Origin: Escherichia phage LHE83
Reading direction: 5' to 3' (one strand)
Sequence record: OQ561750
Length of the DNA stretch: 64,000 nucleotides
Of the stretch, positions 15,187 through 55,737 are shown one piece after another. The position numbers were made by a program, and so were the translations under genes. The notes beneath the pieces are model-generated. The model made no database searches. It was not told the DNA's origin and saw nothing but the letters and a program-made list of their open reading frames with translations. Within the stretch, counting starts at the first letter, position 1; every line of letters starts with the position of its first letter.

Positions 15187-15936
15187 ATGCCTACTATTAA
15201 AACTAACGATGAATTTGAGTTAAAGGTTTACAAACGTCGCGAACACACTAAAGCCTCTGCCAAAAAACGTGGTAAGGACTTTAACCTGTCTAGTAAGTAC
15301 GTTCGTAGACTTCTTGAACAAAAAGTGTGTGCATATTCAGGCGAGCGCTTTGATGAGAATTCAGATAAAGATAAGATTTCGTTTGAACGCTTTAACAACG
15401 ATATAGGTTATATCGAAGGTAATGTAATCCCGGTTAAAGTTAAGTACAACGGGTTGCGAGCTGATTTGTCTTTAGATGAATTGAAACGTGCACAGACTCG
15501 TTTAGCGTCCCGTATTTCAGGTGGTTCTAAAATGCCTAATAGTTTTAAAGTTACCCCAGATAATTATTATAAAATTCGTAAAATAGTTAAAAATATTAAA
15601 GATACCCAAAGAGGTCTTAAAAAGCGTGAAAAACGTCTTAAGGACCTTATTAAATCAGGAGCCACTGATAATACCCCTTCTGTCATCGCGGTTAAGGCCC
15701 GTATCCATGGTTCTAACGCTTCAATAGGTACTATGGAAAAGGGTCTTAAATCTTTAATTGGTGGGCCTGATTGGCGTGTCAAGTTTAAATTGTCTGAAGC
15801 AGAAACGCGTTACGATATGTATGATAAAATTATTCAAGGTCTGGAGCGTTTAGAACACCTTTCTTTTATTGACAAAATGAAGTTGAAAAAAGGTCTTCCG
15901 CTGAATGCTTCAATTTTTTCACTGATTAGAGGTTAA
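15187..15936 (+). CDS. Srd-like protein (by position)
   Basis: 249 aa between mod genes and dda; N-terminal CAYSGERF...SFERFNNDIGYIEGN HNH_3-like pattern. Confidence 0.35.
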   Translation: MPTIKTNDEFELKVYKRREHTKASAKKRGKDFNLSSKYVRRLLEQKVCAYSGERFDENSDKDKISFERFNNDIGYIEGNVIPVKVKYNGLRADLSLDELKRAQTRLASRISGGSKMPNSFKVTPDNYYKIRKIVKNIKDTQRGLKKREKRLKDLIKSGATDNTPSVIAVKARIHGSNASIGTMEKGLKSLIGGPDWRVKFKLSEAETRYDMYDKIIQGLERLEHLSFIDKMKLKKGLPLNASIFSLIRG

Positions 15937-45661: not shown

Positions 45662-46609
45662 ATGAACGATTTAGATTTTTTACTTCCTGAAGAAGACCAA
45701 CAAAAAGATGGATTTTTACTCCTAGATTTCAGCCAAATCATTATGGCTGCAGCTTTCCAAGAGTTTGGTGAGAATGCTGGATTTCCTAAAGTAACTACCG
45801 CAATGCTTCGACACCTCGTGTTGAATTCAATTAAGAAAAACATTAAAGACTTCCGTAAACAAGGTTACAACCAATTAATTATTTGTGTTGATAACTCCAA
45901 ATCAGGTTATTGGCGTCGTCGTTATTCTTCTTATTATAAGAAAAACCGTGCTAAGGCTCGTGACGAATCACCATTTGACTGGGAAGGCCTATTTACAGCA
46001 ATGCATATTATTGTCGATGAATTGGAACATAATATGCCTTATATTGTTATGAATATCGATACAATCGAGGCTGATGACCATATTGCTGTATTGACTCGTA
46101 TCCTTACGGCTTTAGGTCACCCTGTTATGATTGGTTCTTCTGATGGTGACTTTACCCAACTTCATAAATTCCCTGGTGTAAAACAATGGTCCCCAATGCA
46201 GAAAAAATTCGTCAAAACAAAATCTGGTGATGCATTGCTTGATTGCGTGACTAAGGTTGTTAAAGGTGACCGTAAAGATAACGTCGCGAGTATTAAAGTT
46301 CGTGGTGATTACTGGTTGACGATGGTTGAAGGCGAACGTACTCCTAGCACTCGTGCCAAGGAACTTGAAGCAATTGCTCTGAATTATTATGACCATGATA
46401 TAATTAAAACACTTCTTACTGAAGAACAATATGAACGTTTCTGTGAAAACCAAATCTTAATTGATATGGACTTTATTCCAGATGATATTGTTGCTTTAAT
46501 TACTGAAAGATATAATACGTATAACAAACCTTCGAAATCTAAAGTTTATCCTTATTTCGTTAAATCAGGTTTGTCTAAACTAACTGCTACAGTAGCTGAT
46601 TTTTATTAA
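45662..46609 (+). CDS. rnh: RNase H (5'-3' exonuclease/flap endonuclease)
   Basis: DFSQII...CVDNSKSGYWRR...SSDGDFTQLHK matches T4 RNase H by recollection. Confidence 0.85.
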   Translation: MNDLDFLLPEEDQQKDGFLLLDFSQIIMAAAFQEFGENAGFPKVTTAMLRHLVLNSIKKNIKDFRKQGYNQLIICVDNSKSGYWRRRYSSYYKKNRAKARDESPFDWEGLFTAMHIIVDELEHNMPYIVMNIDTIEADDHIAVLTRILTALGHPVMIGSSDGDFTQLHKFPGVKQWSPMQKKFVKTKSGDALLDCVTKVVKGDRKDNVASIKVRGDYWLTMVEGERTPSTRAKELEAIALNYYDHDIIKTLLTEEQYERFCENQILIDMDFIPDDIVALITERYNTYNKPSKSKVYPYFVKSGLSKLTATVADFY

Positions 46610-46889: not shown

Positions 46890-47172
46890 TTTTGATGGAG
46901 CGGTTAATACCGCTTCCGAACCTGTCCATGTATTAGTAAACAAACAACAGAATGGCCTTGATATTGAGGCCTTTGTTGAAGCTGAAGGTTGTAGTTACCT
47001 CGAAGCGGCTACCGCATGGTTGGAAGAGAATAGCATCCCTGAAGGTAACTTTGCTCGTTATTTGCCTGCAGGAATTATTGATAAAATTATGAACGAAGCC
47101 ATTGATGATAACTTGCTTCGACCTTCAATGGCTCGAACGCAAAAAACTAATACTCTGGATTTCTTGTTATGA
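46870..47172 (+). CDS. 33: late transcription co-activator gp33
   Basis: Position between dsbA and 59; size. Confidence 0.65.
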   Translation: MTQSLNDFDGAVNTASEPVHVLVNKQQNGLDIEAFVEAEGCSYLEAATAWLEENSIPEGNFARYLPAGIIDKIMNEAIDDNLLRPSMARTQKTNTLDFLL

Positions 47173-47822
47173 TTAAGATTCGCATGCCACCAAACAATAA
47201 CCGTATGGTGAATGGTAAGAGCGTATATTCACTATACTTAATGCTCAAACATCACTTCAATGCCAAATACGACGTTATAAAATATAACTGGGTCATGCGA
47301 ATCTCTGATACGGCTTATCAAAAACGTCGTGACAAATATTTCTTTGAGAAATTGAGTGATAAATACACTTTGAAAGAGCTTGCTCTTATCTTCATGAGTA
47401 ACTTGGTGGCTAACCAAGATGCATGGATTGGCGATATCAGTGATGCTGACGCCTTAGTCTTTTACCGAGAATATATCGGTAGACTTAAAAGAATAAAACA
47501 AGTTTTTGAGGATGATATCAAAAACATTTATTATTTTAGTAAGAAAGTGGAAGTTCAAGCGCTTTCTGAAATTTTTGATTATAATAAAAAAGTTAACTCG
47601 AGCTATATTTTTAAGCTCCTTCAATCGAATGTTATTTCATTCGAAACGTTTATTTTGCTTGATTCATTTATGGATATAATTGATAAACATGATGAACAGA
47701 CCAACGATTTAGTGTGGTCTAAGTATTCGACTAAATTAAATGCTTATAAGAAAATTCTTATAATTGATAATTTAGAAGCTCGTAAATTGTTCATCGAAAC
47801 AATTAAGGGTTGCAAATTTTGA
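47169..47822 (+). CDS. 59: helicase loader gp59
   Basis: 217 aa; MIKIRMP...KYDVIKYNW...LVANQDAWIGDISDADALVFYREYIGRLK matches T4 gp59. Confidence 0.9.
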   Translation: MIKIRMPPNNNRMVNGKSVYSLYLMLKHHFNAKYDVIKYNWVMRISDTAYQKRRDKYFFEKLSDKYTLKELALIFMSNLVANQDAWIGDISDADALVFYREYIGRLKRIKQVFEDDIKNIYYFSKKVEVQALSEIFDYNKKVNSSYIFKLLQSNVISFETFILLDSFMDIIDKHDEQTNDLVWSKYSTKLNAYKKILIIDNLEARKLFIETIKGCKF

Positions 47823-47836
47823 ATATAGTTTATAAA

Positions 47837-48454
47837 ATGACTTGGATTAATCGTCAGGCTAATAATATTAAGCCGTTTTCGTACATAGGTTCTAAAACTA
47901 ATTGTACTTTTGAAAATGGCGTGATTATTGACTGTAAAGGTAAAGAGTATTGGACCTCTTGCGAGCAATCAAGATTTAAAGAGGCCATCGAAGAAGAAAA
48001 ACCTATTGTTGAAATTTTGGCTATAACGCCATTTGATATTGTTATTAATATTGAACGTTCAGAACAATTGGAAGTTCAAGCTAGAGATAATGATGATTAT
48101 TTTAATTTGGTTTATGCCGGTGGCGGATTTGGAGTCTTTGGATGCACTCACCCAGCCAAACGTCCTGAAGTTAGAGCCCATATGAAAGCTGCTAACTATA
48201 TGAATCAACCCGATTACCGTCCTTGGAAAACTTCTAGAGCAAACCCTTTAGATTGGATGCTTAGTGATATTGCTTATACTAATTATTGTATAATTAATTC
48301 TAGTGGAAGAGCTTGTGGATGGAGGCGTCTCATTAACTCTGGTATAAATGTTAGTGAAACTACATCAAAGAGTATGATTAAACAATTTAATGAGGGTTGG
48401 GTTCCTAATGATGACCCTGAATTCATTAAGTTAAAAATGCTTTATTCGAAGTGA
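47837..48454 (+). CDS. hypothetical protein in AT-rich insert at the segG position (possible mobile/homing-endonuclease-related gene)
   Basis: Lies between 59 and 32 where T4 has segG; AT-rich; YIGSKT-like motif; no SD. Confidence 0.4.
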   Translation: MTWINRQANNIKPFSYIGSKTNCTFENGVIIDCKGKEYWTSCEQSRFKEAIEEEKPIVEILAITPFDIVINIERSEQLEVQARDNDDYFNLVYAGGGFGVFGCTHPAKRPEVRAHMKAANYMNQPDYRPWKTSRANPLDWMLSDIAYTNYCIINSSGRACGWRRLINSGINVSETTSKSMIKQFNEGWVPNDDPEFIKLKMLYSK

Positions 48455-48552
48455 TATATAATTACTTCATCTTCAAAACCTAGTTATCAAGGTAAACGTG
48501 ATAACAACAACTGTTAATAAATTTATTAAATATATCAAATAAGGTAAATAAT

Positions 48553-49464
48553 ATGTCTATGTTTAAACGCCGTAATCCTGCTGAACTTGCTGCTCAACTG
48601 TCTGCAATGAAAGGCGGCTCTTCTTTCTCGTCTGATGACAAATCCGAATGGAAATTGAAAGATGACAATGGCGTAGGAACCGCAGTTATTCGATTCCTTC
48701 CTTCGAAAAACGAAGCTAATCCATCCCCATTCGTTAAGCTTGTTAACCATGGTTTTAAGAAAAATGGTCAGTGGTATATCGAATCATGTACGTCTACTCA
48801 TGGTGATTTCGATTCATGTCCTGTATGTAAATACATGAACCAGAATGATACCTTTAATACTAATAATGCCGAATACAAACTGATGAAACGTAAAACTTCC
48901 TTCTGGGCTAACATCCTTGTTATTAAGGATAGTGCAGTACCTGCTAACGAAGGTAAAGTGTTTAAATTCCGTTTCGGTCAGAAAATTATGGATAAAATCA
49001 ACCAGATGGTTGAAGTTGATACTGATATTGGTGAAGTGCCGGTTGACGTAACATGTCCGTTTGATGGTGCGAACTTCGTACTGAAATCTAAGAAAGTTGG
49101 CGACTTCAAGAACTACGACGATTCCAAATTCATGGGTCAGTCTGAAATTCCTAACATCAATGATGAAGCTTACCAAGCTAAATTGATGGAAGAAATGCAC
49201 GACCTTTCTAAACTGCTCGATTTCAAATCATTCGAAACTAACGAAGCTAAGTTTAAGAAAGTTGTTGGTACAGCTGCTCTTGGTGGTGCTGCCGCTAAAG
49301 CTTCTGCAGCCGCTGATAAGATTGGTGATGACCTGGACGCATTCAGTGCAGACCTTGATGCATATGACTCCAAACCATCTACACCGACTCGTTCCACTAC
49401 TCCTGAGCCGTCAGTAAGTCCTTCTGATGACGATGGTCTGGACGACCTGTTAGCTGGTCTATAA
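48553..49464 (+). CDS. 32: ssDNA-binding protein gp32
   Basis: [12 protein letters not shown]...VIRFLPSKN...[10 protein letters not shown]...; acidic C-terminus. Confidence 0.95.
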
Positions 49465-52840: not shown

Positions 52841-55096
52841 ATGCAAGTACAAAAAAGTAGTGGTGTATCCCAAGATTTTGACGCACAAAAAATTATTAAA
52901 GTTCTGACTTGGGGCTGTGAAGGAACCCAAATCGACCCCTATGAATTATACGAAGAAATCAAATCTCACCTTCGTGATGGTATGACTACCAAAGATATCC
53001 AGAATCTGACTGTTAAGGTCGCAGCCAACCTTATTTCGGTTGAAGAACCTGACTATCAGTATGTTGCTGCAAAGCAATTGATGTTTGCACTGCGTAAAGA
53101 AGTTTACGGCCAGTTCGAACCACGTAGCTTTATCGACCATATTTCCTATTGTGTTAACGAAGGTAAATATGACCCTGAATTGTTGTCTCGATATTCTGCA
53201 GAAGAAATTACTTTCTTAGAATCTCATATAAAGCATGAACGCGATTTCGAATTGACTTATGCTGGTGCGATGCAGCTTAAAGAGAAATATCTGGTTAAAG
53301 ATAAAACAACCGGTAAAATCTACGAAACCCCTCAGTTCGCTATCATGTGTATTGGTATGGCCTTACACCAAGACGAGCCAGGTAATCGTTTAGCACATAT
53401 TATTCGTTTTTATGATGCTGTAAGTACCCGTCAGGTTTCATTACCAACTCCTATTATGGCTGGAGCACGTACACCAACCCGTCAATTTAGTTCTTGTGTG
53501 GTTATTGAAGCAGGCGACTCACTGAAATCTATTAACAAAACTGCTAACTCAATAATTGAATACATTTCTAAACGTGCCGGTATTGGTATCAACGTTGGTA
53601 TGATTCGTGCTGAAGGTTCTCGTATTGGCATGGGCGAAGTCAAGCATACCGGTGTTATTCCATTCTGGAAACATTTCCAGACTGCTGTTAAATCATGTTC
53701 ACAAGGTGGAATCCGTGGCGGCGCTGCTACTGCTTATTATCCTATTTGGCATTTGGAAGTTGAAAATCTGCTCGTTCTGAAAAACAACAAAGGTGTCGAT
53801 GAGAACCGTATTCGCCATATGGACTACGGAATCCAGATGAACGACCTTATGATGGAACGTTTCGGTAAAAATGATTACATCACGTTGTTTAGTCCTCATG
53901 AAATGGGTGGTGAGCTTTACTATTCTTATTTCGAAGACCAAGACCGTTTCCGTGAATTGTATGAAGCCGCAGAAAAAGACCCTAGTATTCGTAAGAAACG
54001 TATTAAGGCACGCGACCTTTTCGAATTGTTCATGACTGAACGTTCAGGCACTGCACGAATTTATCCTCAGTTCGTTGATAACACTAACAACTTCACACCA
54101 TTTATTCGTGAAAAAGCTCCTATTCGTCAGAGCAACTTGTGTTGTGAAATTGCTATCCCGACTACTGACGTGAATAGTCCTGACGCTGAAATTGGTTTGT
54201 GTACGTTGTCTGCATTCGTATTGGATAACTTCGATTGGCAGGACCAAGACAAAATCAACGAGCTGGCTGAAGTACAAGTACGTGCACTTGATAACCTGTT
54301 GGACTATCAAGATTATCCTGTTCCTGAAGCTCTGAAGGCTAAGAAACGTCGTAACCTGGGTGTTGGTGTTACGAACTACGCCGCTTGGTTAGCAAGCAAC
54401 TTTGCTTCTTATGAAGACGCTAACGATTTAACTCATGAATTGTTTGAGAGATTACAATATGGACTTATCCGAGCATCCATCAAGCTGGCCGAAGAAAAAG
54501 GACATTGCGAGTATTATTCAGACACTAAATGGTCTCGAGGCGAATTACCTATCGACTGGTACAATAAAAAGATTGACCAAATCGCAGCCCCTAACTATGT
54601 TTGTGACTGGACGTCGTTGCGGGAAGACTTGGCTAAACATGGCATCCGTAATAGCACATTATCAGCACTTATGCCGTGTGAATCAAGCAGCCAGGTTTCC
54701 AACTCTACAAACGGTATCGAACCTCCACGTGGTCCGGTAAGTATTAAAGAATCTAAAGAAGGTAACTTCCGTCAGGTAGTTCCTAATGTAGAACATAACC
54801 AAGGACTCTACGATTACGCTTGGAGCCTCGCTAAGAAAGGTAATAAACCTTATCTTACCCAAGTGGCAATAGCGTTGAAATGGGTGTGTCAATCGGCATC
54901 AGCTAATACATATTATGACCCACAGATTTTTCCAAAAGGAAAAGTTCCGATGTCGGTAATGCTTGACGACCTGCTGTATTTCTGGTACTACGGTGGTAAG
55001 AACCTTTACTATCATAATACCCGTGATGGCTCTGGTACTGATGACTATGAAATCGAAACTCCTAAAGCCGATGATTGTGCAGCTTGTAAATTGTAA
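52841..55096 (+). CDS. nrdA: ribonucleoside-diphosphate reductase alpha subunit
   Basis: 751 aa; ATP-cone, NLCCEI active site. Confidence 0.95.
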   Translation: MQVQKSSGVSQDFDAQKIIKVLTWGCEGTQIDPYELYEEIKSHLRDGMTTKDIQNLTVKVAANLISVEEPDYQYVAAKQLMFALRKEVYGQFEPRSFIDHISYCVNEGKYDPELLSRYSAEEITFLESHIKHERDFELTYAGAMQLKEKYLVKDKTTGKIYETPQFAIMCIGMALHQDEPGNRLAHIIRFYDAVSTRQVSLPTPIMAGARTPTRQFSSCVVIEAGDSLKSINKTANSIIEYISKRAGIGINVGMIRAEGSRIGMGEVKHTGVIPFWKHFQTAVKSCSQGGIRGGAATAYYPIWHLEVENLLVLKNNKGVDENRIRHMDYGIQMNDLMMERFGKNDYITLFSPHEMGGELYYSYFEDQDRFRELYEAAEKDPSIRKKRIKARDLFELFMTERSGTARIYPQFVDNTNNFTPFIREKAPIRQSNLCCEIAIPTTDVNSPDAEIGLCTLSAFVLDNFDWQDQDKINELAEVQVRALDNLLDYQDYPVPEALKAKKRRNLGVGVTNYAAWLASNFASYEDANDLTHELFERLQYGLIRASIKLAEEKGHCEYYSDTKWSRGELPIDWYNKKIDQIAAPNYVCDWTSLREDLAKHGIRNSTLSALMPCESSSQVSNSTNGIEPPRGPVSIKESKEGNFRQVVPNVEHNQGLYDYAWSLAKKGNKPYLTQVAIALKWVCQSASANTYYDPQIFPKGKVPMSVMLDDLLYFWYYGGKNLYYHNTRDGSGTDDYEIETPKADDCAACKL

Positions 55097-55737
55097 TGAA
55101 TTATCAAAAAATCTATAACAACCTAATTTCCCGAGCTCAGGCTCGGGAACCTTTATCTGAATATAAAGAGAATCATCACATAATCCCTAGATGTTTAGGT
55201 GGTTCTGATGATAAGGAAAATCTGGTTTATCTTACTGGGCGCGAGCACTTTATTGCACACTGGCTTCTTACAAAGTTTAATGATTATCCAGGCCTCAACC
55301 AAGCCTTTGGCATGATGTGTCTCACTAATAAAAATAGGCAATATAATGTTTCTTCTAGGTTATACGAAATAGGTAAAAAGCTTTTATCGGAAGCCATGAC
55401 TGGTAAAGAAATGGCTGAAGAGACTAAGAAGAAAATTAGTGAGACTATGAAAGGAAGGGAATTTACCGAAGAGCATTTGGCTCGCATGAGAAAGCCTAAA
55501 ACCGAAGAAGCTAAAAAGAATATAGCTTCTGCCAAAGTTGGTGCGCTTAATCCTATGTATGGTACAATTTCTCCTACAAGAGATGTCCCTCATACTAAAG
55601 AGACATGTGATTTAATTTCTTTGAAGACCAAAGAGAGAACAGACTATCCACCTTGCCCACATTGTGGCAAGAAAGTTAACAAAGGTAATGCTTTAAGATG
55701 GCATTACGATAAATGCAAATTTAAGGATTCTAAATGA
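55096..55737 (+). CDS. mobE: HNH homing endonuclease (MobE-like) with NUMOD-type repeats
   Basis: HHIIPRCLGGSDDKENLVYLTGREHFIAH HNH motif; repeated ...KKNIASAKVG / ETKKKISETMKG; between nrdA and nrdB as T4 mobE. Confidence 0.7.
   Translation: MNYQKIYNNLISRAQAREPLSEYKENHHIIPRCLGGSDDKENLVYLTGREHFIAHWLLTKFNDYPGLNQAFGMMCLTNKNRQYNVSSRLYEIGKKLLSEAMTGKEMAEETKKKISETMKGREFTEEHLARMRKPKTEEAKKNIASAKVGALNPMYGTISPTRDVPHTKETCDLISLKTKERTDYPPCPHCGKKVNKGNALRWHYDKCKFKDSK

Follow-up and report, generated by a model that had tools for sequence, protein, structure and literature searches.

The gene that lies between genes 59 and 32 in the phage DNA analysed here is a positional and sequence orthologue of T4 segG, and it very likely encodes an intact, free-standing homing endonuclease of the SegG-type GIY-YIG class. 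Translation probably starts at a TTG codon six codons upstream of the ATG used before, as judged from conservation of the intervening codons, and a single codon in the 5' part of gene 32 is probably the site through which the enzyme cleaves naive genomes and spares its own. The element is of an already known kind and has already been annotated, and the current understanding of homing endonucleases is unchanged; useful additions are the start codon as corrected, the precise boundaries of the insertion and the predicted target and immunity codon. The window, which is the whole analysed stretch of 64,000 nucleotides from Escherichia phage LHE83, has its source group in Dhakavirus (JS98-like T-even phages), and between positions 46600 and 49600 it is 97.5-98.7% identical to the phages IME540, MX01, PSD2002, Bp7, FB and AnYang.

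Family assignment and predicted fold

The reading frame singled out in the initial annotation is real and sits, co-oriented and outside any intron, in the slot from gene 59 to gene 32 that segG occupies in T4 (Table 1); the YIGSKT motif ascribed to it was found at nt 47882-47899. The window protein (211 aa) and T4 SegG (210 aa) correspond from MNIVY to the C-terminus, with 59% identity and 72% positives over residues 1-208 (E 5e-89), and the PHROG 7504 family "homing endonuclease" (phrog_7504) is matched at E 5e-110. Near-identical proteins of MX01, PSD2002 and Bp7 are entered as "homing endonuclease" in GenBank/RefSeq, and the VR5 record labels its protein "similar to T4 SegG (gp32.1)". In six metagenomic lineages, a SegG that is 48-75% identical occupies the same slot between 59 and 32. 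The gene is intact in all eight Dhakavirus alleles, and its comparison with VR5 (dS 0.85, dN 0.097, dN/dS 0.11) places it under purifying selection. The earlier suspicion of a degenerate or novel nuclease was therefore mistaken: the protein is a full-length orthologue by identity and family match, and it is under purifying selection.

Table 1. Features of the segG-like gene and its surroundings (positions in the window)
Feature	Position	Strand	Remarks
Gene 59	47169..47822	+	both Pfam gp59 domains, E 4e-47 and 1e-38
segG-linked haplotype	~47801..48801		gene plus co-converted flanks
SD-like TAAGGG	47804..47809	+	in last codons of gene 59; 9-nt spacer to TTG 47819
segG-like gene, preferred reading	47819..48454	+	TTG start, 211 codons + TGA
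Gene 59 stop TGA	47820..47822	+	overlapped by segG TTG (TTTTGA)
N-terminal GIY-YIG-type catalytic domain (predicted)	47819..48109	+	aa 1-97
IVY	47825-47833
ORF of the initial annotation, ATG-started	47837..48454	+	205 aa + stop; same as RefSeq call for MX01, Bp7, AnYang, VR5
YIG	47882-47890
Glu79	48053-48055
Asn96	48104-48106
Linker (VYAGGGFG...NYMN..RPWKTSRA)	48110..48244	+	aa 98-142; pLDDT 39-61, many invariant columns
C-terminal helical domain	48245..48451	+	aa 143-211; presumed DNA-binding/HTH-like module
T4-type middle-promoter consensus for gene 32 (TGCTTTA, 12 nt, TATAAT)	48438..48462	+	spans segG stop
Gene 32	48553..49464	+	Pfam gp32, E 1e-51
gp32 W74-Y-I-E-S78-C79 (TGG TAT ATC GAA TCA TGT)	48772..48789	+	predicted cleavage-resistant SegG target

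An AlphaFold model computed from 11 homologues (mean pLDDT 79.8, pTM 0.47) has a confident N-domain, a linker of low confidence but high conservation and a confident C-terminal helical domain. The predicted fold of the N-domain points to the GIY-YIG alpha/beta type, with 1ln0_A as the weak top rank in Foldseek (E 0.46), and the C-terminal part of the model is matched by HTH-type DNA-binding domains in structure comparison. The two name-giving motifs of the family fall on predicted strands, I3-V4-Y5 (the GIY motif) on E2-8 and Y22-I23-G24 (the YIG motif) on E21-26. A profile search of 1.84 billion representatives returned 234 relatives, nearly all of which share the N-terminal 100 residues only, located at their own N-termini. 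Among 65 relatives Y5, Y22, G24, K26, Y44, S47, E79 and N96 are invariant and V4 is at least 90% conserved; NUMOD3 motifs occur in 38 of these 65 N-domain relatives and a weak SegE_GIY-YIG (PF19835) match in four. E79 (in I-E-R, as in the I-E-R of I-TevI) and N96 (in Y-F-N, compared to G-Y-N) were matched to Glu75 and Asn90 of I-TevI by motif and order, not by residue-level superposition. A candidate for the counterpart of Arg27 in I-TevI is R52, at least 90% conserved in close SegG relatives, though not across the 65-sequence family. By analogy with the linker of I-TevI, the linker of the window protein would contact DNA. The protein P0097 contains eight repeats matching linker positions 111-150, the nature of which was not clarified by Pfam. 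With the motif positions intact under the TTG start and a GIY-YIG fold predicted for the N-domain, the proposal of a homing endonuclease in the initial annotation is upheld.

Against Pfam PF01541 and the NCBIfam models there was no match up to E 10, and T4 SegG has none either; since the T4 protein also escapes these models, the negative result is understood as divergence of a subfamily lying outside the models, not as absence of a GIY-YIG domain. A PDB sequence search with the single protein gave no nuclease match, and the PDB searches fail for T4 SegG too. A 13-sequence profile searched against the PDB returned chance matches only (RNA polymerase Rpo3, E 0.35), and Pfam DUF2799 (E 0.08, 13.8 bits) was likewise rejected as chance. 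In a profile-profile comparison with I-TevI, the 65-sequence profile matched on the NUMOD3 of other family members and not on the catalytic domain. The GIY-YIG prototype I-TevI, encoded in the T4 td intron, differs from SegG in that no likeness is detectable by sequence or profile; SegG has ~25 extra residues, two conserved Cys among them, inserted after YIG and ahead of the first helix, it lacks a zinc finger or clear NUMOD3, it is free-standing instead of intron-encoded and its target does not adjoin the insertion point but lies ~330 bp away. With SegA-F and the SegE_GIY-YIG family (PF19835), the window protein shares the divergent Seg-type catalytic domain, the Y-x-G/S-S after YIG and the intronless homing lifestyle, whereas C-terminal domains, insertion sites and targets are others and the window protein remains below the Pfam thresholds.

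In base composition, the initial annotation had described the gene as visibly more AT-rich than its flanks. At 34.6-35.3% GC this holds in relation to gene 32 (41.4%) and to the window mean (39.6%), but not in relation to gene 59 (31.7%); rnh has 36.0%. The segG-like ORF falls on the 2nd percentile of 636-nt windows and is the 7th lowest of 78 crude genes, and its GC3 of 25% is the lowest locally, the sole measure of composition for which this is so. Of the two observations then considered adverse to the reading, a composition no different from that of the neighbours holds by half, gene 59 being the more AT-rich, and a confident non-nuclease domain was not found.

Start codon, insertion boundaries and gene 32 leader

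Two TTG codons, at 47810 and 47819, precede the ATG at 47837 in frame, where a single upstream start had been counted before; the overlap with the gene 59 stop noted at that time is correct and concerns the second of them (TTG 47819-21 and TGA 47820-22). The resulting TTTTGA is an arrangement that appears suited to translational coupling, and a TTGA overlap is found also in P0004 and NC-G. From 47819 the window reads TTG-AAT-ATA-GTT-TAT-AAA-ATG, which makes the ATG of the initial annotation codon 7 and the form starting there probably six codons too short. All Dhakavirus alleles keep the N-I-V-Y encoded between the TTG and the ATG, as do T4 and six metagenomic lineages, and its Val codon varies among the synonymous GTT, GTA and GTC; each of the eight Dhakavirus alleles starts TTG-AAT-ATA-GTN-TAT. 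Met is not retained at codon 7 (W-F-T-F in T4, F in P0004, L in P0005). Because IVY is the GIY motif, which is present only with a start at TTG 47819 or 47810, the ATG-started form is without it. The 636-nt form starting with TTG is already annotated in the PSD2002 and FB records; the RefSeq ATG call for MX01, Bp7, AnYang and VR5 drops the GIY motif, and the corrected start would mend this recurrent annotation error.

The gene had also been described as devoid of a Shine-Dalgarno sequence. This stands for ATG 47837, which has no purine-rich SD in the preceding 18 nt, but not for TTG 47819, with TAAGGG placed 9 nt upstream; the statement was wrong in effect because it was judged at the wrong start codon. 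TAAGGG can by eye pair with the 3' end of 16S rRNA. It is restricted to seg-carrying alleles, the segG-free Dhakaviruses having AAATCT instead, and the C-terminus of gp59 reads ...IKGCKF in seg carriers compared to ...IKSCKF in segG-free Dhakaviruses. An (A)AAGG motif is positioned 9-12 nt before the start in seven out of ten SegG lineages. T4 differs from the window in having ATG-AAT-ATA-GTA-TAT 1 nt after the 59 stop and no SD, as opposed to the TTG overlap with TAAGGG. Masking of the start by RNA structure received no support from folding of 47780-47860 (z = 0.18). TTG 47810 or ATG 47837 may still serve as alternative starts; P0003 has ATG at the position of TTG 47810, but the SD spacing would there be zero.

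At its 3' end, the gene runs into the middle-promoter consensus of gene 32, one of five strict plus-strand matches that a pattern search retrieved from the whole window, all of them being consensus matches only. In T4, control sequences of gene 32 overlap the 3' end of segG, and the consensus suggests the like for the window. JS98 and WG01 have the corresponding element (TGCTTCA, 12 nt, TAATAT) directly after the gene 59 stop, and in NC-G a middle-promoter element ends an alternative seg gene. Comparing the placement of this element with and without segG, it follows that the gene exactly fills the gap from the gene 59 stop to the MotA box; gene 59 lends it the start region, and the gene 32 promoter consensus the stop. 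The anatomy of the insertion would fit the account of T4 segG as a cassette without a promoter of its own that harbours those of gene 32 (PMC2988022). A TATAAATA late promoter, of which T4 segG has one, was not found inside the window segG. A looser MotA-like site (TGCTTGA, 12 nt, TATAAT) lies within gene 59 at 47656-47680 (+), ~160 nt before the segG start, and its sequence is conserved in segG-free phages too; for T4, the review names a promoter in the 3' part of gene 59 as serving segG.

The leader of gene 32, extending to 48552, contains a hairpin GUUAUCA...UGAUAAC at 48483-48505, with ACAACUGUUAAU and an AU-rich stretch behind it. This structure corresponds by homology to the autoregulatory operator of T4 gene 32 (GCUAUG...CAUAGC ACCAACUGUUAAU), with two compensatory base-pair changes. 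Segments of segG-free Dhakaviruses align to the leader from ACAACTGTTAAT onward only, which suggests that the hairpin moves together with the segG haplotype. An Rfam scan of 47600-48700 gave no match.

Overlap of this kind raises the question of whether the gene might be a decaying or domesticated remnant, started at ATG 47837 without the GIY motif, catalytically dead and kept for its overlap with the promoter and leader of gene 32. We consider this quite unlikely. The RefSeq ATG start in MX01, Bp7, AnYang and VR5 and the missing Pfam GIY-YIG match would agree with it, but the active T4 SegG is likewise without Pfam match, and the codons for NIVY in front of the ATG are kept, varying synonymously. 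It is true that the middle-promoter consensus of gene 32 overlaps the segG stop codon and that, as noted in a review, embedded promoters favour retention of the endonuclease gene (PMC2988022); a dN/dS of 0.11 over the whole gene (dS 0.85) with invariant catalytic-motif positions, and seven phages of different backgrounds having near-identical gene and tract as from recent spread, speak against a remnant.

Divergent tract and predicted target in gene 32

The gene is carried by 11 records, which represent seven Dhakavirus phages only, and is absent from several dozen Dhakavirus records, JS98, JS10, IME08, WG01 and QL01 among them; PSD2002 with segG and WG01 without it are filed under the same species. 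A sporadic occurrence among close relatives characterizes T4 segG as well. Horizontal acquisition, as proposed in the initial annotation, is borne out by this patchy presence among phages 96-100% identical elsewhere and by the foreign-looking flanks. These flanks reach ~20 nt back into gene 59 and, beyond the 59-32 leader, ~250 nt into gene 32. The sequence from rnh to 59 and over most of gene 32 is 96-100% identical to that of segG-free Dhakaviruses; for the final ~100 nt of gene 59 the value is 84-91%, and for the initial ~250 nt of gene 32 it is 81-90%. The dS of gene 32 is 0.77-0.87 in codons 1-90 and 0.045-0.136 beyond, a jump of more than sixfold. That seven phages of differing backgrounds share a near-identical gene together with its tract implies recent spread. 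Phage 04086 is a recombinant inside the tract. A search of the phage collection for the donor of the divergent gene 32 part gave nothing nearer than segG-free Dhakaviruses (80-82%). The 3' end of gene 59 (47747-47790) occurs in at least three Dhakavirus haplotypes that do not follow the presence of segG: PSD2002, Bp7, FB and NC-G have one, AnYang and 04086 another, and the window, MX01 and IME540 resemble the segG-free phages. This suggests further recombination breakpoints.

In all carriers the haplotype ends at the codons for gp32 W74-Y-I-E-S78-C79, the Cys79 of which we take to align with Cys77 of T4 gp32, the first zinc ligand. All ten SegG carriers compared (the window, VR5, T4, L019 and six metagenomic lineages of 48-75% SegG identity) have Ser or Thr (TCA, ACA, ACG) for the X of W-Y-I-E-X-C, and Asn (AAC/AAT) stands there in six segG-free genomes (T2 and five Dhakaviruses) and in both carriers of the alternative seg gene. 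The window and T4 are alike in having the same gp32 codon altered and differ in the resistant codon itself, TCA (Ser) in the window and ACA (Thr) in T4. An IMG/VR search with the SegG alignment gave six loci only, and contexts were taken instead from the contigs encoding the relatives; in an IMG/VR pattern scan, the 41 Asn-type loci were all without SegG and three of the four Thr/Ser-type loci were with it (Fisher exact test, p ~3e-4, on genomes that are not independent). The sole exception, L073 (IMGVR_UViG_2974787500_000001), is a segG-free T2-like Tequatrovirus with the Thr codon, in which a short T4-like patch is confined to the predicted site (gene 32 nt ~174-231). It looks like a resistant allele gained without the endonuclease gene, the trace that would be expected from repair of a cut when conversion misses the distant endonuclease gene. 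The T4/T2 differences in gene 32 cluster at the predicted site in a MAFFT alignment of which the gene 32 part alone was used, the gene 59 part being misplaced. In a study of 2003, Liu et al. reportedly mapped the cut in T2 to a point 332 bp away from where segG is inserted, a position that presumably falls at the adjoining AAT and TGC codons (~908-913) in the T2 record AY310907. Taken from this distribution, the Asn versus Thr/Ser codon of gp32 is probably the cleavage and immunity site of SegG.

The same pattern could in principle arise by ordinary homologous recombination between Dhakavirus lineages and later deletion of segG in most of them, in which case homing would play no part and the association of Asn, Ser and Thr with segG would be linkage. 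T-even genomes are highly mosaic, the gene 59 3' haplotypes are unrelated to segG presence and the genomes compared are not phylogenetically independent, all of which lends the idea some substance. We nevertheless hold it to be very unlikely, given that at least two genera and six further metagenomic lineages (SegG identity down to 48%) show one codon changed the same way, that the tract ends at this gp32 codon in every carrier, that the L073 patch is restricted to the site on a T2-like segG-free background and that T4 SegG is known to drive exactly such homing.

Proposed homing cycle, possible competition for the slot and implications

T4 SegG is established as a free-standing GIY-YIG homing endonuclease encoded between 32 and 59 (gene 32.1) that cuts gene 32 and in T4 x T2 crosses excludes the T2 gene 32 (PMC2988022; PMC2330249). 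The T4 enzyme was shown experimentally, whereas the window version is known from sequence, and the cycle is proposed for it as follows. The gene would be transcribed within the 59 message, and its start at TTG 47819 would be engaged either by ribosomes that have just terminated gene 59 or through the TAAGGG SD, with the effect that the enzyme level is kept low. The weak translation supposed in the initial annotation is plausible for a TTG linked in this way to the 59 stop and for an SD that is only modest. On co-infection with a segG-free relative, the protein would bind DNA through its C-terminal helical domain and linker and cut the gene 32 of the partner phage at a site ~330 bp downstream from the insertion point. 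For this cut the sequence TGG TAY ATT GAA AAC TGT is predicted, which encodes the start of the gp32 zinc-binding segment. Recombinational repair would then copy donor sequence, segG included, into the cut genome, and the carrier's own gene 32 would be shielded by the Asn-to-Ser change (AAC to TCA) together with nearby synonymous changes. That the protein mainly serves the phage, by excluding competitors or regulating gene 32, with its own mobility secondary, is extremely unlikely: SegG marker exclusion does benefit the carrier genome in T4 x T2 crosses (PMC2330249) and the gene is interleaved with gene 32 control elements, but most Dhakaviruses do without the gene, no sign of a regulatory role appeared in this analysis, and exclusion and homing are two readings of one cleavage event.

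The slot is filled differently in NC-G (L007), which has an alternative seg-like gene at positions 1520-2149 of its own sequence, and in 04086 (L006), where that gene occupies the same place between 59 and 32. The gene resembles the window segG in insertion point, in the TTG-AAT-ATA-GTN-TAT start over the 59 stop, in length and in architecture; it differs in being only ~30% identical to it, with its relationship to the "segG" of SP18 and RZ instead, and in that gene 32 of its carriers has the Asn-type site, predicted to be sensitive, and the haplotype of segG-free phages. Because the Asn-type gene 32 site is retained in these carriers, the nuclease of NC-G and 04086 probably has a different target.

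Further nuclease-related genes were observed in relatives and elsewhere in the window. A second homing endonuclease gene is located between 33 and 59 in AnYang (L004, 870-1556), IME540 (L008, 870-1556) and L023 (1172-1867); it is canonical, with Pfam GIY-YIG, NUMOD3 and I-TevI DNA-binding domains. The window is without it, its genes 33 and 59 overlapping at 47169-47172. A 213-aa ORF at 55096-55737 (+), with 36.9% GC and a match to PHROG 655 "homing endonuclease" (E 4e-63), is a probable second mobile nuclease gene of the window. A 249-aa ORF at 15187-15936 (+) matches the Srd anti-sigma factor PHROG (E 7e-93), and its N-terminal ~120 residues give weaker matches to HNH and endonuclease VII-type PHROGs.

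Lastly, the gp32 signature W-Y-I-E-N-C compared to W-Y-I-E-T/S-C could serve as a marker that predicts loss of the gene 32 region in mixed T-even infections, and as such it bears on the design of phage cocktails and on the reading of T-even mosaicism. The residue concerned stands just before the first gp32 zinc ligand; naive phages have Asn at this place and carriers have Thr or Ser. We put forward, as a tentative pair of linked ideas that falls somewhat short of being probable, that this codon might act as a universal immunity switch against all SegG lineages and that the two SegG-like genes might contest the 59/32 slot. If true, a selfish nuclease would time and again have imposed a residue change on the zinc-binding segment of the single-strand-binding protein of the phage, and the 59/32 slot of the Dhakaviruses would represent a natural system in which to study how homing endonucleases compete for, and replace one another at, a single locus.
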